From positions 86,182,001-86,246,000 of the forward strand of contig NC_086108.1 of assembly GCF_963921235.1 (NCBI RefSeq): a DNA stretch of 64,000 nucleotides, read 5' to 3'. This DNA is from Mobula hypostoma (Eukaryota). Under the pieces are notes generated by a model. It was not told where the DNA came from, did no database searches, and saw only the letters and a program-made list of their open reading frames with translations. The position numbers were made by a program, and so were the translations under genes. This document shows positions 26,922 to 62,936 of the stretch, one piece after another (positions within the stretch are counted from its first letter, which is position 1; every line of letters begins with the position of its first letter).

Positions 26922-27281
26922 GCTGAGTCCTGGGCTCAGCTGGCTCCGGCTGACAGCACCTGGTATGGGCCCCTATACAGGGTTATGGATCCCACTGCCT
27001 CGTGGATATCTTCAGGAGAAGAGAAGGCTGAGGAGTAAACCCTACACAAATCCAGAGTGGACCCCCTAAGGCGGTTGGACGACATATCATGTCACCTCGC
27101 GGCAGTTCCTGCAGCCAAGCTGATGCCAAATGTACCACTTCGCATTCCTTTGGACCACATCCGTGAGGCCGAGAGGGGGACCTTGATGTCTGGGCAGCTC
27201 AGGATCTCCATATTTATCACCTAGGTCTGCGTCCCAGAACGGGCGCATCCACTGTCTACTTAGACAGAGCCATGATATGAC
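26922..27281 (+). mobile_element. Bipartite non-autonomous RTE element (LINE 5'UTR fused to LINE 3' end)
   Basis: 26930-27235 matches the reverse complement of ~51940-52260. 27236-27273 (GGGCGCATCCACTGTCTACTTAGACAGA) matches the reverse complement of ~47738-47775. A 10-bp TSD TTGTCTTTCA lies at 26912-26921 and 27282-27291. Confidence 0.9.
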
Positions 27282-40154: not shown

Positions 40155-42613
40155 TAGGTGGAGGGAAGGCAGTTTTGAGGAATTAGAGAGGCTACAGAGG
40201 AACTTAGACAGACTAGGAGAATGGGCAAAGAGTGGCAGATAGAATACAGTACTGAAAGTGTGTGGTTGTGCACTTTGGTAGTAGGAATGAAAGGATTGAC
40301 TGTCTTCTAAATAGAGAGAAAATACAAAAATCTGAGGTGTAAAAGGATTTGGGAGTCCCTGAGCAGAATTCCTAAAGGTTAATTTGCAGGTTGAGTCTGT
40401 GGTGATGAAGGTAGATGCAATGCTCACATTCATTTCAGGAGGACTAGAATATAAAAGCAAGGACATAATGTTGATACTTTATAAAGCACTGGTGAGGCCT
40501 CACTTGGAGTACAGGTGTCCCCCACTTTTCGAATGTTCGCTTTACGAAACCTCACTGTTACGAAAGACCTACATTAGTACCCTGTTTTCGCTTTCAGAAG
40601 GTGTTTTCACTGTTATGAAGAAAGATAGCGCGCGATAAAAGGCAGCGCGTGCCCCGAGCAGCCGCTCTGCCCTGGATTCGGAACAGCATTGCTTAAGCAC
40701 GTTGCATTGAGCAGCCGTTAGCAAAATGAGTTCTAAGGTGTCGGAAAAGCCTGAAACAGTAAGGGTGTTACACTTAGCGTAAAACTAGACATATTTAAGC
40801 ATTTTGATCGTGGTGAACGAAGTAAGGACAAAGTGAGTTTGGCTTGTGGAAGCTGACGAAGATGATGTTGAAGAAGTTTTGGCATTCCATGACCAAGAAC
40901 TGAAAGATGAAGAGCTGATGCAATTGGAAGAGGAAAAGATAACAATTGAAACCGAATGCAGTGGAAAACTGAACGTGAAGCAACTGTGTGAGATTTTCAC
41001 TGCAATGATAAAGTATGACGTTAATTTTGAAAGGGTACGCAGGTTTACGGGATATTTGCAGGATGGTTTGAGTGCTTAAAAACAACTGTATGATAGGAAA
41101 ATGCGTGAGGGTCAGCAGTCAAGCAAGCCTTCCACATCAGCCACAGCAGACGACGAACCTCGACCTTCGACATTGAGGCGGGCAGTCATAGGAGAAGATG
41201 AGCTGCCTGCCCTGATCGACGATGAGATGATACCCTCGTGTCCCACCACCCCAACCCCCGGGCCCCAGACAGGTACTGTACTGATTCGCGGAAAATGCAG
41301 CAGTAACCGGGAGGCACACAGCACATCTTTAAGAAAGAAGCCAAAATAAACATGCTAATTAATTAGGTGCCGCCTAGCACGTAATTGTCGGCCCAGATCA
41401 AAGACGATGCAATTGGCAATCGCCTCTGATCTGCGCTGACATCTATGTGCCGGGCAGCACTTAATTAATTAGCATGTTTATTTCGGCTTTTTTCTTAAAG
41501 ATGTGCTGTGTGCCTCCCGGCTACCGCTGCATCCTTCGCGGCAATGTATTGGGTTGGCGGCCCAGAGGGTGGGGGCCACTGCACCACCCAACCTGCGGCG
41601 ACTCAGTCTAACACACCATCAGTGTGCTCGCCGCTGTTTTCCCAATTCCGGTAAGTGATACTACACTGTATATACATTATTTCTACCTTATAGGCTGTGT
41701 ATTTTTACGTGTTATTTGGTAGATTTGGCAGCTTCATAGTTTAAAGGTTACTGGAGAGCGCGTTTATGCCAACAGCGCATGCGTGAGGTTTTCTGCCGAG
41801 AGTGCTTGCGTGAGATTTTTGCTACGGAGATCTGTGCAGGCAATCGTTGTAGAGAAGTATTTCTACTTTATATAGGCTGCGTATTTATCATATCATTCCT
41901 GCTTTTACTATATGTTACTGTTATTTTAGGTTTTATGTGTTATTTGGCATGATTTGGTAGGTTATTTTTGGGTCTGCGAACGCTCACAAAATTTTCCCAT
42001 ATAAATAAATGGTAATTGCTTCTTCGCTTTACGCCATTTCAGCTTACGAACCATTTCATAGGAATGCTCTACCTTCGGATGGCGGGGGAGCCTGTATTGT
42101 GAGCAGTGTTGGGCCCCTCATCTTGGAAAGGATGTGCTGAAACTGGAGAGGGTTCAAAGGAGATTCACATAAATGATTCCAAGATTGAATGGCTTGTCAT
42201 GTGAAAAGTATTTGATGGCTCTGGGCCTGTATTCACTGGAATTCAGAAGAATGAGGGTGACCTAACTAAAACCTATCGAATGGTGGAAGGCCTTGATAGA
42301 GTGGTTGTGGAGAGGATGTTTCCTATGATGAAAGTCTCTAGGATCAGAGTACACAGCCTCAGAATAGAGAGGTGTCCTTTTAGAATGGAGAGGAGAAAGA
42401 TTTTTTTAGCCAGAGAGTGGTGAGTCTGTGGAATTCATTGTCACAGGCAGCTGTGGGGCCATGTCTTTATGTATATTTGTAACTCTCACAGAAAGGGTAC
42501 GGGGAGAAGGCGGGAGGTTGGGGCTGAGAGGAAAGGTGTATCAGCCAGGATGAAATGGCGGAGCAGACTCAATGGGCCAAATATCCTAATTCTGCTCCCA
42601 TATCTTATGGTCT
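40155..42613 (+). mobile_element. CR1 3' portion interrupted by a Tigger element
   Basis: VRPHLE-Y|CEQ is split exactly at the TA of the Tyr codon by 40512-42094. Confidence 0.85.
40512..42094 (+). mobile_element. Tigger/pogo DNA transposon, internally deleted
   Basis: TA TSD and TIRs CAGGTGTCCCCC ... GGGGGAGCCTG. A CENP-B-like HTH start (KGVTLSVKLDI.KHFDRGERSKD) is joined to an acidic C-terminus (EDDVEEVL..HDQEL.DEELMQLEEE). No DDE domain is seen. Confidence 0.85.
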
Positions 42614-43167: not shown

Positions 43168-46100
43168 ATACAGGGTGAGAGCTTGCGGCAGTCGATGCGC
43201 AAGAGAAAATCTCTGGTGGACAGCCAGGCACAGTCCCCAGGCTGGAGTAGTCTGGCTGGGTGCCGATTGCAGTTAGCCTGGTGGTAGTAGGTGCAGTTGG
43301 CAGCTAGTGTGGTCCTCCATGCCCTCTTCCAAGCACTTTGTCATCGGTGAAGCAGGGACATAGCAGATTGGAACTCAACTATTGGCTACTCCACTGGGAG
43401 TACTGATGGTTAGTAGCCATGAAGAACATCAAAGCATGCCATACTTGTGGCACGGGGGAGGGGTGTAGATTGTGGGACAGTTCAGCCGAGAGCAACTATT
43501 TCTTCCACGTGGATGGGTTAGAGGGGGCAAAGCATCACAGAAACTTCTCCACGTGCTGGTTGGCTCTTTCTGACTGACAGCTGGACTGCCGATGATAGCC
43601 AGAGGACAAATTCACTGAGGTGCAGAGAAGGGAACAGAAGGCTCGCCAGATGCGGGAGATGAATTGTGGGCCCTGCATTGACTCAGTGTCCTGAGGGAAA
43701 CTGTGAGGGTGAGCTACGTGTTGAAGAACCAGGTTCGCCGTCTCAGTGGTCGACAGAACTTTGGGGAGGACAATGAAGTGGGCCTCCTTGGAGAACTGGT
43801 CCACCACTGTCATGATCAGTGGAAGGTGGCAAACCTGTGACGAAATCCATGGCGATGTGGAAGGATGGTTGTCGAGGGACTGATTGGAGCAGCAGTCGCC
43901 CAGAGGGCCACTGGTTGGATTAATTAGACTGGGCACATTGAGAAGCACTGTGCTGGCACACAGTACATCTGCGATCACCAGAACTGGCATTGCAGAAAAT
44001 CCAGGGTCTGTCGTATGCTTGGATGGCCAGAGAGGAGTGAGGATTGAGGAGTAAGCCTACTGGAGTGTCTCAGAGTGCATGGCCACCGGCACTTACATGT
44101 GGTCGACTAGAGCAGGCTCATTTGTAGGGCCTAGCGGATTTGGTTCTCAAGATCTCACATGATCAGGACATGGATCTGTGAGGTTGGAATGGTGGGCTGA
44201 GGTTTGATCTCCATTTCAGCTGCGTCGAACTGTTTTGTCAGTGCATCTCCCTTAGTGTGCTTGGAGTTGGGTCAGTAGGGGATGGCTGTTTTGTTTTGTA
44301 ACTCCTAAACATAAAACTAATTGAAAGAAAAGCAGGGAGCTGGGGGTAACGTGTATGTTTAGTTTTTATTTTTAGTGAGGCTTGCAGATATGGCATGATG
44401 GTGTAATGATGTATGCCATTCACATACTTTTACATAAAACCCATAATAAATTACGTAAACATCAAAGAATGCTTAATCAAATAATATTACTCAAATATTA
44501 CTGAAATATTAAATACACAATACTCCTCCTTGCTTACATATAAACTCCAGCTCAGTATAGAATGCATCTCACCTCAATTATGTAATGTATTGTTCTCTTG
44601 TCATGTTGTAGATATAACATATATTAAATACAACTTCTATATGTATAAGCATCCACAGCATAGTAACATTTAAATTGTCCCATTCAGTTGTCAAGTTTTA
44701 ATCACTCAGGAGGCTTTCTTACTCTTTGGGATAACATCTTTCCTACTTGGCAGGTGAGAGTTGTGTCGTTGAAACCATCTCAGGTTCTGGGGCCTCCTCC
44801 TGGGTTTTCTGCGATGTCAGTTCTGGTGTTGTAAGAGTTGACTCTGGCAATGCAGAAAGAGACTCTAACAGCTCTGGACAACATTCTTCTCTAATGATTG
44901 ACTCTGTTCTCCTCAACTGATTGATGTGTCGTCTCCAGATGACCTCGGGTGTAATCTCCACTGTGTTGGAGAGTGGTCCAGTTCTGTCTTTAATCTTTCC
45001 AGGCATCCATTTTGATCATCTCTGTAGTTCCCTCACGAGGACTGCTGGTCCAGGAGTGAAACATCGAATCTGCTTGTTTGAGAAGCCCTCAACTTATCTC
45101 AGCTGTTTGTCCTGAATACTCTTTCTGAGATTGGGTCTGAGCAGAGCACAAAGGATAACCATGAGCACAAGGGACAACCCAGGAACAGCATAGCTGGTGA
45201 GTCGTTGGTTGTAGAATGTGTTGCATGATGATATGCAAGGAAGAAATTGGCGAGCTTTTGATTCAGTGATGGTGATGTGTGTTCTGCTGATGTTGCTTGC
45301 AGTGTGTTGTTTAGACTTTGAACAAACCTTTCCATTGAGCCATTTGTAGCTGGGTGGTATGGTGTCAATATAATAAGTCTTAATCCGTTCATTTTCAGGA
45401 ACGACTGAAATTGTTGCACAACAAACTGTGGCCCATTGTCACTGACTAAGTATTCTGGAACACCAGTCCTTGAAAAGAGGCTTCTCAACATGACAACAGT
45501 TGAAAAGCTGCAGTGGAGGCTATTGAGAACACTTCTGGTCACCCTGTAGCTGCATCCATTATTACCAAGAAGTTTGTGCCCATCAATGGTCCAGCAAAAT
45601 CCACATGAATCCTCTGATACGGCAATGCAAGCCATTCCCAGGGATGACAAGACCCCTTTGCATCTCCTGGATGTGTTGGCATCACAGACAATGCGTAGTG
45701 AGCTGCTTGATCTGCTGGCTGATTTATCCCAGGCCACCAGACAAAGCTTTGAGCCAATTTTTTTCATCTTGAGCACACCTAGATGACTGGCATGTAGTTC
45801 CTCCAACACTTTAGCTCAACATCTCTCAATCCCCATAGAAGACAAACTTTGTTCAAGGGCAAATTCACCTTGGCACTGATAAAGATGGGGGAACTGGAGT
45901 TTTTGCTCCATGTTCCAGTAATTTTTGGGTGGCCGTGTAGACCTGAGACAGTGTGGGGTCTTTTCTGGTTTCCCTTTGGATCATCTCTGCTGTAATAAGA
46001 AGACTTTCAATTTGCATTGGGGAGAATACATTAAGAAGAGTGTCCTCTTTTGAAAATGTCTCATGTATTTCCTTTTCCAACAGTAAATGGGACAATCCAT

Positions 46101-47109
46101 TAGCATTTCCATGATTACTTATCCTCTTGAATTTGATCTTGTAATTGTGTCATCCAGGAAACAGAGTCCAGCTCCGCACTTGAGCTACTGCTGTTAGTGG
46201 AACACCTTTTTGTGGATTGAAAATGAACACGAGTGGTTGATGGTCAGTAATGAAGGTAAACTCTCCTATACAAATACTGGTTGAAATTTTTCACACCCCA
46301 AACCAGACTCAGAGCCTTCTTGTCAATGTGTGCAGAATTTTTCTCTGCAGCAGTAAGGGAATGTGATGCAAAGGCTATGAGACATTCACTTCCATCGCTC
46401 ATAACATGTGACATGACTGCTCCTATACCAGAAGGTGAGGCATCATTGGCAAGCTTCACCAGATGCTGTGGATCATAGTGTGTAAGTATAATGTCTGACG
46501 TCACCATTTCTGTTACGCTTTCGAAAGCCACCTCACACTGCTCTGTTCAGTGGCATTTCTTCCTGATCTGAGGTAAAGAGTTCAAGTGGTGGAGCACAGT
46601 TTCAGGTTTGGCAGGAATCTGTTATAGTAATTGACAAATCCTAAAAATAACTGCAACTTTGAAATGTCCTTTGGCCTTAGGGTATCCACCACTGCTTGAA
46701 TTTTCTCAGCACACTTGTGTAATCCTTGTGCATCAACAGTATGACCACAATAAGTGATGCTTAGTGTAAATAATTCACATTTGTTGCACTGCGCTCTAAC
46801 CTATAACCTTCTTCTCTTTTTAACACCATATTGAGATTTTCGAGAGGTTCCTTGTCATCCTTACTGGTAACACTGAGTGCCTGGGCAGCCTTGCATCACC
46901 TGGTCCATAGCTTTCTGCTAGAGTGCAGGTACAGATGCTACTCCAAAAAATAAGCCTATTATAGCAATAAAGCTCATTGTGAGCGTTTATGGTGAGAAAC
47001 ACTTCGGATTCTCCTTCCACCTCCGTCTGTAGGTAGCCTTCAGCTGTTATTTTGCTGAAGGATTTCCCTCCAGAAAGGTTTGCAAAGGTATCCTCTGTCC
47101 TGGGCAGAG

Positions 47110-47688
47110 TGTGAGGCCCTCCATGAGTCAGGGTTGACCATGGATGTTGTGTAACAGCTGTCTATGTGTTATGCAGCCCAGGGCAGTACCATATGGAGAG
47201 AAAGATGTTGCCCATGCAGCAGGCTTCCCCTCTATATGCAGCTGATGAATCCAAAGAAACTGTAGAGACTGATACAGTTTGGCACCAACAGCGTCGCAGG
47301 AGATGCCAGTCAGTGTTGAACTCAATGGAGGACTGCCTCAGTGACTCCAGCTCCAGATTTTTCCTCGGGTTTACTTCTGAGGCCTTCCTCATGAGTGGGT
47401 ATAGCCACAAGGCAGCAGAGGTTTCAGCTCAGAGTTTTCCTTCTCCTAGATGAACTGCAAACAATGGCTGATGAGCCCCAACTGCCTGAAGTGATTTGTT
47501 TTACGACACCAGTAACCCACTATTGCCCCTTCTCTGTAAGTTGAAATGTTTCTGTCAGGCTTAGTAGCCAAACGATACATGAAGGCCAGGAGCTGAACTT
47601 GGTTGTCAGAGGCTATTTGAAACACATGCCTTTTGGGAGCATTTAATTGGTAGTGGAAGCTTATCCCCCAGCTATATCTTAAGGAACC
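47110..47688 (-). mobile_element. Second bipartite non-autonomous RTE-type element (different family)
   Basis: 8-bp TSD GGGCAGAG at 47102-47109 and 47689-47696. It shares a GAAGGC..AGTAAACCC......AAATC...GGA...CT.AGGC.GT motif with the RTE 5'UTR, and its 3' end CATCCATGGTC..GAC..ATGGAG resembles the RTE 3' end. Confidence 0.75.
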
Positions 47689-47842
47689 GGGCAGAGGGTA
47701 TTGATCTACTTTCAGTACTGGGTTGCTAATAATAATAATGGCTCCATCTGTCTAAGTAGACAATGGATGCGCCCAGTTTAGGACTCAATTGGATGTGGAA
47801 CAGCGTCGGCTGTGGCTGAATAAGACGATTCTTGAGCAGCAG

Positions 47843-50800
47843 TCAGTCCTTGGCACAGCTGCAGCACACGAAGGCTGATGGCTGCGGCTGGGTAGTCACT
47901 GCCTCAGCTTTCCTTCTCTCTCTTCTATCCGACCACAGTCGAGTTCGTTTTTCCTCTGCATTGGTAATGCCTGTACTTACAGCCTGTCGCCAGGTGCAGC
48001 GATTTGCAGCTGTCTCTTCCCAAGTGTCCTCCCTGATATCAGCAGACTTCAGGTCACGTTTACAAACGTCCCTGTAGCACAGCAGTGGGCACCCTATGGG
48101 CCGGGATCCTGCGGCAAGTTCTCCGTATAGGATGTCCTCAGGGATACGGCGGACGTGGCCAAGCCAGCGCAGTCGTTGCTGTGTGAGAAGGTCACACATG
48201 CTTGGCATGCCGGCCTGGTCCAGGACGTCATTGTTTGGCACGCGGTATTTCCAGGAAATGCCCAGGATCGGACGCAAGCATCGTAGGTGGAAGCTGTTGA
48301 GACGGTGCTCTTGGCGCGCATAGGTTGTTCAACTCTCGCTGCTGTAGAGAAGAGTACTCAGTACGCTGGCTCTGTACACTGCAGTCTTGGTGGCTGTGGT
48401 GAGCTTCTTGTTTCTCCACACTCTCTTTGACAGCTTGGCCATAGCAGCGGCTTTCCCTATTCGCCTGTTGAGCTCTGGATCAAGGGACAGGTTGCTGGAG
48501 ACTGTCGATTTTAGGTAGGTGAATTCATCGACCGCTTGCAGGGTGTGGTTGCCGATGCTGATGGTGGGGGCTTCGCTGACGTCCTGGCCCATGATCTCTG
48601 TCTTCTTCGGACTGATGGTGAGGCCATACTCTTGGCAAGCATGTGCCAGGGAACTGACTAGCCTCTGGAGACCAGACTGTGTGTGTGACGTCAGGGCGGC
48701 ATCATCAGTAAAGAGTATCTTCCAAATCAGGACCTGACGCACTTTGTTCTTTGCTCTGAGGTGTGCAAGGTTGAAGAGCTTGCCGTTGGACCTAGTGTGT
48801 AGGTACACTCCGACATCAGATGTCCTGAAAGCGTACAACAGTACGAGGGAGAAGAAGATCCCGAAGAGCATCGGGGCAAGGATACAACCGTGCTTCACTC
48901 TGCTTTGGATGGGGAAGGGCTCTGAGGATGATCCATCGAATTGTACTGTCCCCTGCATGCCGTCATGGAAAGAGGCAATGAGATTTAGCAGCTTTGAAGG
49001 GCATCCGATCTTCTTCCAGAATGCAAAGAGGCCTCTCCTGCTACGCAGGTCAAAAGCCTTGGTTAGATCGATAAGGGCATCGTACAAAGGCTGTCTCTGT
49101 TCACGGCTCTTCTCCTGTAGCTGCCTGACTGAGAAGGTCATGTCGATGGTGTATCTCTCTGCTCTGAAGCCACACTGGGACTCAGGGTAGATACGTTCTG
49201 CCAGTGTCTGCAGTCGCTTCAGAACCACTTGGACAAACACCTTGCCAATGGTGTCGAGCAGGAATATGCCTCTGTAATTGTTACAGTCGTTGCAGTCTCC
49301 CTTATTCTTGAACAATGTGATGATGTTTGCGTCTCGTACGTCTTGAGGAACTGATTCCTCCTCCCGGCACTGGCAGAGCAGCTCGTGAAGATGGCTTAGG
49401 AGCACTGGTTTCCCGCACTGGATCACTTCTGCAGGGTTTTCGTCTTTGCCTGGTGCCCTGCTGTGAGCAGGCGAGTTGATAGCCTTGTTGAGTTCTTCCT
49501 CTGTTGGGGGTAGGTCCACCTCTTTCATGACTTCTTCAGGAATGCGACACAGAGCGTCATAGGAAGTCATTCCTGCCTGTGGCCATCAAACTTTACAACT
49601 CCTCCCTTGGAGGGTCAGACACCCTGAGCCAATAGGCTGGTCCTGGACTTATTTCCTGGCATAATATACATATTACTATTTAATTATTTATGGTTTTATT
49701 ACTATTTAATTAATTATGGTGCAACTGTAATGAAAACCAATTTCCTTAAGGATCAATAAAGTATGACTATGACTATGACAGGTAAAGCAGGGATACTGGC
49801 AAGGGCTGACTCAGTGACCAAGTTCTCAGTGGAGTACAGGTTCTGCTAGTGCCTGGCCCACCTCTCCACCTGCTTGGCACGGCCTTTGATGACTTCACTG
49901 TCCTTGGACTTGAACGGAGCGATCTTGCTAACGGTGGGCCTGAAGGCTTTCTTCATCCCCTCATACATGCCTTGTACATTGCCACTGTCGGCGCAGGTCT
50001 GGATGTTCTGGCACAGATTCTGCCAGTAGACAACTGCGCAGCGTCTAGCCGTCCTTTGAGTATTGTTTCTTGCCATTCTCAGTGCAGTGAGATTCTTTTC
50101 TGACGAGTCTCTTTTGTAGTTGATCAGAGCTTCTCTCCTGGTATCAATGACAGGTTCCATCTCAGACAGGTGAGATTCAAACCAGTCTTGGTTTTTCCTC
50201 TCCTTCTTCCTGAGGGATGACATGGCGGTGTTGTAGATGGTGCCACAAATGAATTGCCACCTCTCCTCCATGGTTGTGGCTGTATTTGCTTTGAAAGCCT
50301 GTTCCATTTGGTCGTTGGGTTTCGTGTGAAGTTCTGGGTTCGCTGCCTTGGCAGTGTTGATGTGTGGGCATCCTTTCTGCTTGGTGTGGTGGATCTTCTT
50401 TGGTTTCAGTCGGACTTTGCTGCCCACCATGGAATGGTCCATGACGCAGTCTGCACTGTGTAAGCTGCGTGTTAGAAGCACACTGTTGAGGGCAGCTCTT
50501 CTGGTGATGATCATGTCCAGCTGATGCCAGTGTCCGGACCTTGGGTGGCTCTAGGAGACTTTCTGGTGAGGTTTGTCTTGAGGAACGTGTTGGTGATGCA
50601 CAGCTTGCAATAGGAGCAAAACTCCAGCAGTCTCTGGCCGTTGTCGTTCATCTTGCCAAAGCTGAAGTGTTCGAGGCAGTCTGGCCATGAGCTGTGGTCA
50701 GATCTGACTCTAGCATTGAAATCACCAAGCAGAGTGATGTGTGCAGATTCTGGTATTTTGCTGATGGTAGCATCAAGGTCCTCGTAAAACTGATCTTTTG

Positions 50801-51236
50801 TTTCTTGAGGTGAGCCCAGCATTGGAGCGTAGACACTCAGGATGTTCACTTTACCTTTAAAAGGCTGAGGGAAAGGATGCATTCTGCCGGTGGGAGGAAC
50901 TATCATGGATAGCAGGCTGTTCTTGACAGCAAGGCCGACGCCATGTAGTTGGGGCTCCTCAGCTGGTCGGCCCTGCCAAAAAAAGGTATAGTTCCTCTCC
51001 CGCAGCACACCGTCTGCAGCGAGCCTGGTCTCTCGCAGTGCTGCTATGTCGATGTCCAGCACCCTCAGCTCAGAGTCAGTGATCACTGTTTTCCTGCTGT
51101 CGTTGATCTGCTGCGGGTCGTCTGAGAGGCCAGGGCACATGGTCCTAACGTTCCAGGTGGCCAGTCGCAGGACTGGTGGTTTCTTCTTTCTTCTCTGCGG
51201 TTTGCCTGGTGCAGTGATAGCCATCTGCTTTTCCAT
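47843..51236 (-). pseudogene. RTE endonuclease-reverse transcriptase, frameshifted and interrupted
   Basis: LATWNVRTM, VYAP, GDFNARV, NYRGI.LL, PESQCGFR, IDLTKAFD, LFTDD, FTYL and RLRWLGHVRR appear in four ORF pieces. Confidence 0.92.
49561..49779 (+). mobile_element. Rex1/Babar-type 3' end inserted in the RTE ORF
   Basis: AT-rich insert beginning RKSFLPVAIKLYNS and ending AATAAAG(TATGAC)3. Confidence 0.8.
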
Positions 51237-51456
51237 GCAAATCTAAGCTCCAAGCACCCACTGAAGCAGACAGACAGTGGCGAATCAGCACCCAATTGTC
51301 CGGGGGCTGCCTGGATTGAGGTGGGCGATAGCTGATCAGTCAGATGCAGTGACCTCTCCCACCGTCGGAGGCAACCTGTAGTGCCCGTAACCTACGCCAA
51401 TCAGGTTGGACTTATAGCTCGTAACTGCTGCCTCCTGTTTTGGTTTTTCTGCTTTG

Positions 51457-51959
51457 CAGCGGCACCGGAGTGGCCTCCCCGGGACGCAGACCTGGGTGAC
51501 CCCAGCGGCACCGGAGTGGCCTCCCCGGGGCGCAGACCTGGGTGACCCCAGCGGCACCGGAGTGTCCTCCCCGGGGCGCAGACCTGGGTGACCCCAGCGG
51601 CACCGGAGTGTCCTCCCCGGGGCGCAGACCTGGGTGACCCCAGCGGCACCGGAGTGGCCTCCCCGGGGCACAGACCTGGGTGACCCCAGCGGCACCGGAG
51701 TGTCCTCCCCGGGGCACAGACCTCGGTGACCCCAGCGGCACCGGAGTGGCCTCCCCGGGGCACAGACCTGGGTGACCCCAGCGGCACCGGAGTGTCCTCC
51801 CCGGGGCGCAGACCTGGGTGACCCCAGCGGCACCGGAGTGGCCTCCCCGGGGCGCAGACCTGGGTGACCCCAACGGCACCGGAGTGGCCTCCCCGGGGCA
51901 CAGACCTGGGTGACCCCAGCGGCACCGGAGTGACCTCCCCAGGACGCAGAGCTGGGCGA
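51457..51959. repeat. 46-bp GC/CpG-rich tandem array (10 full units + 1 partial) in the RTE 5'UTR
   Basis: Unit GCGGCACCGGAGTG(G/T)CCTCCCCGGGGC(G/A)CAGACCTGGGTGACCCCA starts at 51459, 51505, 51551 ... 51919. Confidence 0.97.
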
Positions 51960-54202
51960 TGAATATGGAAATCCTGGGCTGCCCAAACATCAAGATCCCC
52001 CTCTCGGCCTCTCCCTCTCGACCACGGATGTGGTCCAAAGGAATGCAAAGCAGTACATTTGGCATCGGCTTGGCTGCAGGAGCTGCCAGGAGGTGATGTG
52101 ATACATCATCCAACCGCCTTAGGGGATCCACTCTGGATTTGTGTAGGGTTTACTCCTCAGCCTTCTCTTCTCCCGAAGATACCCACAAACCAGTGGGGAC
52201 CCGTAACCCAGGATAGGGGCCCATACTAGGTACTGTCAGCCGGCGCCAGCTGAGCCCAGAACTTGTGTAAGGCAGGGTCATCACGCCCTGTAGTAGTGAC
52301 ATGTGGAGCTACTACCCACTACCCAAACTGGGTTGATGGTGTCCTTAGAACCACCACAGATCCTGACAGACCAATATTTCTTCAGTACTGGGACCACTGG
52401 CATTGCCTTTGGGCCCCATTCAACCTTGGAAAGGATTCCTTCACCCGCCATATGATTTAGCTCACTGATTAAATTGTCATGAATAGTTTAAGGAACCGAT
52501 GGGTTTTGCAAAAATTGGGTGTGGCATTTTAACTTAGCACTATTTTACCCTTGGTATGTTTGAATTTTCCAGTGCCATCCTTAAAAACTGCTGTGGCATC
52601 ATCCAGTACCTTTCTTAATTCATTTTCAGTTGACTCTTTTGTGGGGGATGTGGCATGTAAATAGTGAATGGATCTTCAATCAAGTTGTAGTTGTCTCAGC
52701 AGTCACAGCCCCACAACATTGGCCCTCCTGTTTTTATCACGCACAAGCCCAATGTGTCTTGTTGGTTGTTGTAATTCACTATTATGAATGTCATTCCCAC
52801 AGGAGTTATCTTTTCTCCAGTGTAAGTTCTTTCTTAGTTGAATATCTTCAGACTTCAGTTCGATGTATTTGAAATGCTGCTCAATTTCATTTTGAGGAAT
52901 GACTGAAATAGCCAAGCCAGGGTCCAATTCCATCTTAATTAGTTTGCCATTTACTTCTGGTGTAAGCAATATTGCTTGTCTCCTATTAGCTTTCACATTG
53001 TAAATCTCAAGGCTTTATCAGATTTTTCATCAACAGCATGCAGATTAGTACTCTTTTAGAAAATGCAACTTGACTTTTTATCTTTTTCTCTTCCCTTAAC
53101 AGTCCATTCATTTTTGTCTGCCCGATATGCTCTTTGTATATGTCCTACTTTATTGCATTTTCTGCAAGTTTCATCTTTAAATTTGCATTGGTTTGGTGTA
53201 TGTGAGCCCCTACCGCAGCAGTCATGTAATTTATCCAGCCACGCAGGCTCTTTATATTGTGCAATTTAGTTCATGCTCACTTATGTTCCCGCTTGCAATT
53301 CATCTGCAACTCTGGCTGCTGTTTCCATGGACGCAACAATTTCAATTGCCCTTTTAATTGTGAGTTGTGCTCAGTCAGGAGCTGTTTTTGAATGCTTTCT
53401 TGTAAGATTCCACAAACTTAATGATCTCTCAGTGCATCATTAAGCCCATCACTGAACTGACAATAGTCAGACAATTTCTTCAGTTCAGCCATGTACACTG
53501 AAATGGACTCCCCTTCCTTTTGATTCTGCTAATGAAACCTAAAGCATTCTGTAATCAACAATGGTTTCAGTTCTAAATGTTCCTGTATTACCTTCATGAT
53601 ATCATCAATGCTCATTTTGGCTTGTTTGGTTGGCACAGAGACACATTCAAGCAAAATGAATGGTCTTCCATCAACTGCACTCAGCAAAAATGGCACTCAT
53701 TTCTTATTGGCTATTTCATTTGTTTCCAAATACTACTTCAAAATATTGTTTAGTATACAATATCCATTTATCTCCAGTGAAATCCAACATCCCTATCTTT
53801 CCAACGTAGCCAGGTATTTCTGCTTTTTCTTAAATTTACATTCATTATCACCCCCAGTAATCATTATGAACCCATGAAATTCTTCCATTTTCAGCATTTT
53901 TTTAAACTGGACCAACTCTGTCCTTTTCCAAAGAGACACTTGCTGCACTTTTGTTTAATTCAACCATCTCTCTCCACTTGAAAACCAAAAACGCACTGAG
54001 CTTCAACAGAAAGGTGGCCATCTTGGATTTGTTTTAAAACTCACTCATTGCCACTGTTATGTTTTGTAACTCCAAAGCATAAAACTGGAAGAAAATCGCA
54101 GAGCTGAGGATTATGTATATGTTTAGTTTTCACTTTTAGCAAGGTGTGATGCGGTGGTGCAATGATGTACGCCATTCATGTAATTTTACAAATAATATGA
54201 AC

Positions 54203-62243: not shown

Positions 62244-62936
62244 TGTCACTTAACTACTCATTTCAGTTAACTTCCCTTTCCCCGTGTTCCACCGGGCTCC
62301 TTGATTAGGGCACCTGATCTTCTTCCAAACCGGCAAGATAAAAACCCCGGCTTATAGCTACTCGGTTGTGGTTCATCACCGTAGCCAGGGCAGCAATGAA
62401 TATTCCGAGCCGCAAAGGATAAGGGACCGTCTTCATGAGCCTCTCCGTGTCAAGATTCATATTGTCTGTTGTGTTTGTTTTTGTCATCTCGTGTCCAGCT
62501 GAGTGTTGCTGGCCGTTTTGCCGCTACTCTGAGCTGAGATGCGAGTGGTCTGTCGTTGTTTTGTTTTGAAGGCTTAGAGTCCCAGTTCAAGTCAAGGCTC
62601 CGAGTCCCGGTTCAAGTCAAGGCTTCGTGTCCAGTCAAGTGATTGCTGGCCATTTACTGCTTCATGAGCTTCTCCATGTCAAGATACGTATTGTCTGTTA
62701 TTGTTTTGTTTAGTCGTCTCATTTCCAGCTGAGTAGGTCCGGCCGTTTGCTGCTACTCCGAGTTGAGAATTCTGTCTCTTCGTGTCCATTCCAAGTCCAG
62801 GCTCTGTGTTCCAGTCAAGTCTAAGTCCAGGCTCTGTGTTCAAGTCAACTCCAAGTCGGTCTCCGTGTCAAGCCTCTGTGCCTGTGTCTTGCACTTGGGT
62901 CCGCTTCCTCCGCTTCCTCCGCCGTCCATTGAAACA
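62244..62936. mobile_element. Solo LTR inserted in a CR1 3' end
   Basis: TG...CA ends with a 5-bp TSD GATGG (62239-62243 and 62937-62941). It contains a ~108-bp direct repeat and CAAGT-rich short repeats. Confidence 0.85.

Follow-up and report, generated by a model that had tools for sequence, protein, structure and literature searches.

A 46-bp minisatellite probably expanded from the leader hairpin module of an RTE-type LINE after its insertion in Mobula hypostoma

The window, by which we mean the whole stretch of 64,000 nucleotides of Mobula hypostoma DNA that was analysed, contains a tandem array of 46-bp units in the 5'UTR of an RTE-type LINE. We consider the array to be a transposon-derived minisatellite, which probably formed by local expansion of a hairpin module of the element's leader after the element had inserted. 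It is the strongest tandem repeat in the window (51457-51956; period 46, 10.9 copies, 95% matches, score 895 in TRF). The original prediction described about eleven near-identical 46-bp units at 51457..51959, and this description was borne out, with ten full units and one of 43 nt. One of the two readings offered in that prediction was a locus-specific minisatellite expansion; this reading is supported by the contrast in age between the array and the element, and by the single-unit spacing in related RTEs. The features of the element, its surroundings and its array are as follows.

44800-54000, minus strand: decayed Ty3/Gypsy-type element which hosts both RTE insertions, with gag zinc knuckle, protease-like, reverse transcriptase, RNase H and integrase sequences
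47717..47725, unstranded: target-site duplication copy on the element's 3' side, 9 bp, adjoining the (ATT)n tail
47726..47787, minus strand: short 3'UTR and (ATT)n tail, matching the 3' end of the related locus L002
47788..51212, minus strand: single RTE ORF (AP endonuclease and reverse transcriptase; PF03372/PF14529, PF00078; tblastn), broken
49532..49778, plus strand: foreign insertion of about 240 bp that interrupts the ORF, with a (TATGAC)3 tail at its end and approximate boundaries, from comparison with the relative P0001
51213..51456, minus strand: conserved structured leader between array and ORF, from alignment and consensus fold
51457..51916, minus strand: ten full 46-bp units, the homogeneous and recent part of the array, from TRF and unit alignment
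51465..51482, minus strand: hairpin with 6-bp stem and 6-nt loop in unit 1, with a counterpart in every other unit; homologous to the conserved RTE leader hairpin
51917..51959, minus strand: terminal degenerate unit of 43 nt (unit 11), first on the element's strand and aged, from unit alignment
51960..52326, minus strand: unique stretch of 5'UTR, 367 nt, lying 5' of the array and also found in the short copy and in distant RTEs
52327..52335, unstranded: target-site duplication copy on the 5' side; the host reading frame is rejoined across the two copies

The RTE-type LINE spans about 47726-52326 on the minus strand and is flanked by the 9-bp target-site duplication. A 12-bp direct repeat at 47711 and 52381 was considered as the duplication and rejected, because the 9-bp repeat directly adjoins the tail and brings the host frame together again. 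Elements of the RTE clade have a single ORF with an AP endonuclease and a reverse transcriptase, and lack ORF1. The element here has the same organisation, with both domains in one ORF and no ORF1, and its relatives are single ORFs of about 1045 amino acids. It also shares with RTE elements the short 3'UTR with a microsatellite tail, the target-site duplication and a bipartite derivative. Its membership of the RTE clade is thus assigned from architecture and from the bipartite derivative rather than from a reverse transcriptase phylogeny. Several protein matches of the ORF are named 'craniofacial development protein 2-like', which we take to be the usual label of RTE endonucleases.

Searching with the best relative, P0001, by tblastn gave 68-72% identity over the three long pieces of the ORF. 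Compared with P0001 the ORF has three stops, changes frame near 50574 and near 47845, and is split by an insertion of about 240 bp. The element had been predicted to be a full-length RTE LINE: it is indeed full length and bounded by its target-site duplication, but the same three stops, two frameshifts and insertion mean that it is not intact. Judged from its sequence, the host copy is full length but dead. The insertion at 49532-49778 includes an internal 26-bp dimer and has no second copy in the window; it is presumably the 3' end of another LINE.

The Ty3/Gypsy-type assignment of the surrounding element comes from translations recognised by eye, together with a Pfam integrase match below the cut-off. 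The second RTE insertion is represented by 47178-47690 (minus strand), the 5'UTR of another RTE-type family, which lies in the same LTR-element reverse transcriptase about 35 bp from the tail of the first element and is 67-75% similar to other metagenome RTE UTRs. The 5'-most 65 nt of the first element (52260-52326, minus strand), which are absent from the short copy, begin with a doubled TGGGYAG that is also present at the 5' end of L002. Rfam models, HDV-like and twister ribozymes included, gave no match at E<=1 over 46500-52600, where a decayed or variant form is possible; among ten relatives there was one weak drz-agam-1 match (E 0.29). Four UTR motifs had no match in the one supplement of PMC5786205 that is in text form.

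Within the array, the ten full units are variable at five columns, three of which are singletons (unit positions 3, 28 and 38). Unit position 17 is G or T, with T in four of the ten, and unit position 30 is G or A, with A in four of the ten, this variant being itself a CpG deamination. The units had been described as differing mainly at a G/T and a G/A site in shuffled order, and this holds, as the order can be written aabbcdcbac. The variants are interspersed and all four haplotypes of positions 17 and 30 are present, which requires either exchange between units or recurrent loss of a CpG. Unit 11 differs from the array consensus at 5/43 positions and from unit 1 at 4/43 (95% CI 2.6-22%). At unit positions 17, 28 and 40 it retains the ancestral letter, in agreement with the short copy, the relatives and the loose ends of family contigs, and one CpG that the inner units have lost. 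A derived base at unit position 22 is common to all units and absent from the relatives and from the family loose ends in sequencing runs X1 and X9. The 46-bp head-to-tail unit is within the 10-100 bp range of minisatellites.

That the array is an artefact of assembly is extremely unlikely. No contig spans it, and the contig comparison covers only two units, which would allow such an error. The interspersed variants in four haplotypes, accompanied by singletons, are unlike the product of repeated copying of one unit, and a unit-to-unit junction is also found in X1, a run whose independence from the source of the window is uncertain.

The array is unlikely to be coding. Three open frames of 217-245 amino acids cross it and none has a Pfam match; frames of this kind are expected from chance composition, and an element with a single unit would shift frame, so a coding role was rejected. 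The minus strand does lack stop codons in every frame across the array, as first noted, but this is uninformative: 60% of shuffled units are likewise free of stops (20,000 shuffles of the unit, each repeated in tandem). The array contains no canonical G-quadruplex pattern.

The unit is present once in related elements. In a metagenome scan for related loci the best 80 of 152 were examined; among these 25 match a UTR anchor and eight match both anchors, and in all eight the spacing between anchors is 31-44 nt, compared with 503 here. The hairpin module is single in 20/20 related loci chosen for a recognisable module, these being distant families (about 70-85% UTR identity) in short-read metagenome assemblies, which are able to collapse repeats. 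A comparison of unit number in other copies had been proposed as a check on the array, and these relatives provide it for distant families, with one unit each. The unit is therefore homologous to a segment that is single copy in distant transposon families, as is characteristic of a transposon-derived minisatellite. TRF run over 39 upstream regions of relatives found no homologous array, and unrelated repeats in 13. In two of the loci, L076 and L078, an unrelated 70-bp repeat of 2.7 copies precedes the ORF, which is RTE-like but more distant, by about 381 nt.

The exact pattern of the unit has no match in either genome contigs or viral contigs. A protein-alignment scan of genome contigs identified 18 related loci, only one with UTR similarity and none in which that similarity reaches the unit; the same scan of viral contigs found no relatives. 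Four loci (L081, L082, L083 and L086), 66-81% identical to the query, are RTE coding sequences on short contigs that belong to bacterial genome records; they most likely reflect contamination by animal DNA.

The age of the element can be set against that of its units. Parts of the region are present in twenty DNA runs from ten organisms, none of which holds half of its words. Contigs of four of the 24 listed runs were compared over 50300-51548, a stretch that includes two units. In X9, four long high-depth pieces (of eight listed) differ from this copy at 54/1088 letters (5.0%). From 37 difference rows, among the 40 of 245 available, the divergence is at least 3%, with 11 of the rows being CpG decays; the remaining three of the 40 were dropped, having been seen in only one or two runs. 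The element body is thus 3-5% from the family contigs, part of which may be a subfamily difference between species.

In contrast, only two or three changes in the 460 bp of the ten full units are private. Had the units aged alongside the element, 14-23 changes, mostly private, would be expected; three are seen and one of these is the ancestral state (Poisson p = 6e-4 for three private changes at 3% divergence). Fisher's test of the units against the element body gives p = 8e-7 for two changes and 1e-4 for all five variable columns; the contrast becomes weak, p = 0.026, if all 11 differences from the consensus are taken as independent. Independent origin of the same G-to-T transversion in four of ten units has a probability of about 2e-6, and the shared variants are therefore taken to have been copied. 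With so few private changes in the units against 3-5% divergence of the body, most units arose here after insertion; expansion after insertion, the hallmark of such a minisatellite, hinges on this treatment of shared variants. The divergence of unit 1 from unit 11 suggests that their split would be about as old as the element, with a wide interval. Taken with the youth of the inner units, this points to an old duplication followed by a recent expansion. Coverage in X9 ends at 51475, and X24, which is guessed to be RNA, has three contigs, none of them on the array; neither blank is evidence.

A different account of the same units is that active members of the RTE family carry several of them, passed on by retrotransposition, and that this locus was homogenised later. 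In X1 one of the listed contigs continues from unit 2 to a further unit, over a junction with two letters that occur in none of the junctions here, and the coverage of unit 2 is 121 in X1 and 263 in X5. X5 appears to lack the private letters of this copy at most of their sites, and multi-unit copies may therefore exist elsewhere in the family. The 3-nt junction that no flank supplies and the split of units 1 and 11 near the age of the insertion would also suit a family-level array, as would AviRTE, which has two copies of a conserved 5'UTR domain (PMC5786205), and the unrelated upstream repeats of L076 and L078. Against this, all 20 relatives have one unit. Coverage of unit 2 could come from single-unit contigs, and one X1 contig does pass from unit 2 to the UTR sequence upstream. 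The private letters of this copy are seen in X1 at several sites, at about 10-15-fold depth, roughly that of a single copy, so the locus itself may be present in X1 and its junction contig may be of that locus too. The unit-2 contigs of X1 and X5 fit a two-unit family, a variable-array family, or single-unit contigs placed on unit 2. We regard a family-level array as unlikely, and even if it were true the ten inner units were renewed after insertion.

Local expansion after insertion would have proceeded in three steps. The RTE-type LINE inserted into the decayed Ty3/Gypsy-type element and later died. A 43-nt piece of the leader, including the conserved hairpin, would have been duplicated with a 3-nt junction found in neither flank; this first duplication appears roughly as old as the insertion and may predate it in the source element. 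Long afterwards the junction-bearing unit gave rise to ten copies, presumably through slippage or unequal exchange, and the two variant sites would have been copied and reshuffled as the array expanded. Unusual stability of the hairpin was considered as the driver of expansion and rejected, as two units fold no better than shuffles (RNA z -0.21; DNA z -0.13 and +0.69). In all likelihood the element gains nothing from the array. It is probably variable in length between individuals and is a candidate VNTR.

No other part of the window has as many CpGs as the array, 40 per 500 bp compared with a median of 5, and the GC content of the array is 76% over 500 bp, above the >50% over at least 200 bp that is used for CpG islands. 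The ratio of observed to expected CpG is 0.56 (0.557) in the array, 0.49 in the RTE body and 0.31 in the window. CpG islands are also defined by a ratio >0.6. The claim that CpGs are kept in CpG-poor surroundings is thus correct for the count, but the ratio is close to that of the RTE body, and the reading of the array as a CpG island fails at a ratio below the threshold. We consider it highly improbable that the array is kept as a regulatory CpG island of the host. Its leading CpG count and the decay of only 4/40 CpGs in the units would suit such a role, but this retention is accounted for by the youth of the array, and its CpG richness follows from youth and composition. The variant site at unit position 30, together with a founder unit that had already lost one CpG, points to a methylated history. 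The long ORFs of the window that were tested or recognised are all transposon-like. Elsewhere in the window, 40450-42100 has the top CpG ratio (0.86-1.0 per 500-bp segment) at moderate GC, with values up to 1.0 near 41.6 kb, and two more short tandem repeats (25 bp x 3.0 and 30 bp x 2.3) lie at 62569-62857, within a kilobase that is locally rich in CpG.

A second copy of the same RTE family is present in the window.

26926..27275, plus strand: bipartite non-autonomous copy of the same RTE family, 5'UTR joined to 3' end, from sequence comparison

Its 5'UTR is 85% identical to that of the full-length copy over 322 columns. The 5' part ends inside the unit, before the hairpin, so that the hairpin module is missing, and it joins the 3' end at a 4-nt microhomology within the unit. 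A 12-nt stretch of the full-length copy's UTR is missing both from the short copy and from the relatives. No clear target-site duplication was found for the short copy. If it moved in this form, the hairpin would be dispensable for transcription or copying, and this argues against a promoter role.

Such a role was the other reading in the original prediction, an RTE regulatory array analogous to the monomers of mouse L1. In such a promoter each unit would add transcription-start activity. In its favour, the units are arranged in tandem in the 5'UTR of a LINE, are rich in GC (76%) and have a high density of CpG. The units are, however, 46 bp long and internal, lying 367 nt behind a unique 5' end that is fixed by the target-site duplication. 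The unit is a leader hairpin module conserved as a paired structure, the short copy does without the hairpin, and the element is dead. We therefore consider a monomer promoter very unlikely.

The leader containing the unit has a conserved structure. The consensus fold was derived from an alignment of 19 of the 20 relatives and unit 1, L014 being omitted for an insertion. Two elements of this fold fall within the unit: the 6-bp hairpin, and the 3' arm of a helix further upstream. Across four helices 96.6% of cells pair, a value reached by none of 500 shuffles and compared with 28-47% in slid controls; the statistic is somewhat inflated, as the structure was derived from this very alignment of related sequences. 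The unit hairpin (helix 2) has 97.5% of cells paired, with changes on both sides in two of six pairs, which is modest covariation. The long helix 4, with arms near 51427-51435 and 51367-51375, shows strong covariation, with both sides changed in six of nine pairs. The G/T site of the array is a base of the hairpin loop and is also variable among the relatives.

Thermodynamic prediction for this copy, which is soft, gives the hairpin a probability of 0.44-0.68 if a single unit is present, but 0.00 if there are two, and 0.00 in every unit of the whole eleven-unit UTR. In the single-unit relatives the predicted probability exceeds 0.5 in 12/20. The array is thus predicted to disrupt the leader fold rather than to tune it.

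The array was said to lie about 220 bp upstream of the ORF. This fits an ATG at 51236, but the conserved start region, marked by GCACC, is about 245 bp from the array. Family contigs mostly differ from this copy at 51222, 51223 and 51234, which removes both upstream ATGs. The GCACC-type motif (51205-51212, minus strand) is found in 19/20 of the loci L001-L077, 243-278 nt after the hairpin and directly before a basic N-terminus. There is no conserved ATG at this region, which is consistent with non-AUG initiation. Useful boundary information comes from the short copy, which stops before the hairpin, and from the 20 loci, in which it is retained some 243-278 nt ahead of the start region. Comparison of these copies suggests that the hairpin module may serve the coding RNA, in translation, and not transcription or copying.

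A more speculative proposal is that an RTE lineage in this group of animals made a variable-number array out of one hairpin in a structured leader that lacks an AUG, and that the array is carried along by active copies and modulates translation or the handling of the RNA. We think this quite unlikely; if it were true, a variable-number hairpin array would parallel the mouse L1 monomers but at the level of RNA. Read as a minisatellite, the array has an ordinary origin and offers little new biology, and it would carry more weight only if it were family-wide. It is nevertheless a neat case in which the leader of a retrotransposon gave rise to a minisatellite and in which dates can be put on both steps, and it might serve as a length marker. 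No paper on a multi-copy minisatellite in an RTE 5'UTR was found among titles and the starts of abstracts, with few subscription papers covered.

Tandem repeats derived from transposons have been surveyed in human DNA, by authors whom we take to be Ahmed and Liang. That survey (PMC3389668) reports that at least 23% of human mini/satellites are transposon-derived and grow by local duplication. The repeats it describes from Alu, L1 and LTR elements resemble the array here in having part of a transposon as their source, a truncated terminal unit, local duplication after insertion and a young homogeneous interior. Here the source differs, being an RTE 5' leader in a non-mammalian genome, and the unit is a conserved RNA hairpin. 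There is also no flanking direct repeat of at least 5 bp, and the junction has three extra bases.

In mouse L1Md elements (A, Gf and Tf) the monomers likewise form a tandem series within a LINE 5'UTR, and a unique tether lies between them and the ORF (PMC6454616, PMC9022269). They are about 200 bp long and lie at the 5' end, where they mark truncation and start sites (PMC6454616). According to PMC6454616 and PMC9022269 they are family-wide, with three to four on average in the youngest subfamilies, and are active as promoters. The array here differs in its 46-bp units, its internal position, its occurrence as a single unit in distant relatives and its location in a dead copy.

RTE-clade LINEs share with the element here a single APE and RT ORF, a conserved 5'UTR and a short 3'UTR with a microsatellite tail. 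Bipartite non-autonomous derivatives of such LINEs are known (Kojima 2018, PMC5786205). These derivatives, 5'UTR joined to 3'UTR, have their counterpart in the short copy, which lies in the same window as the full-length element.
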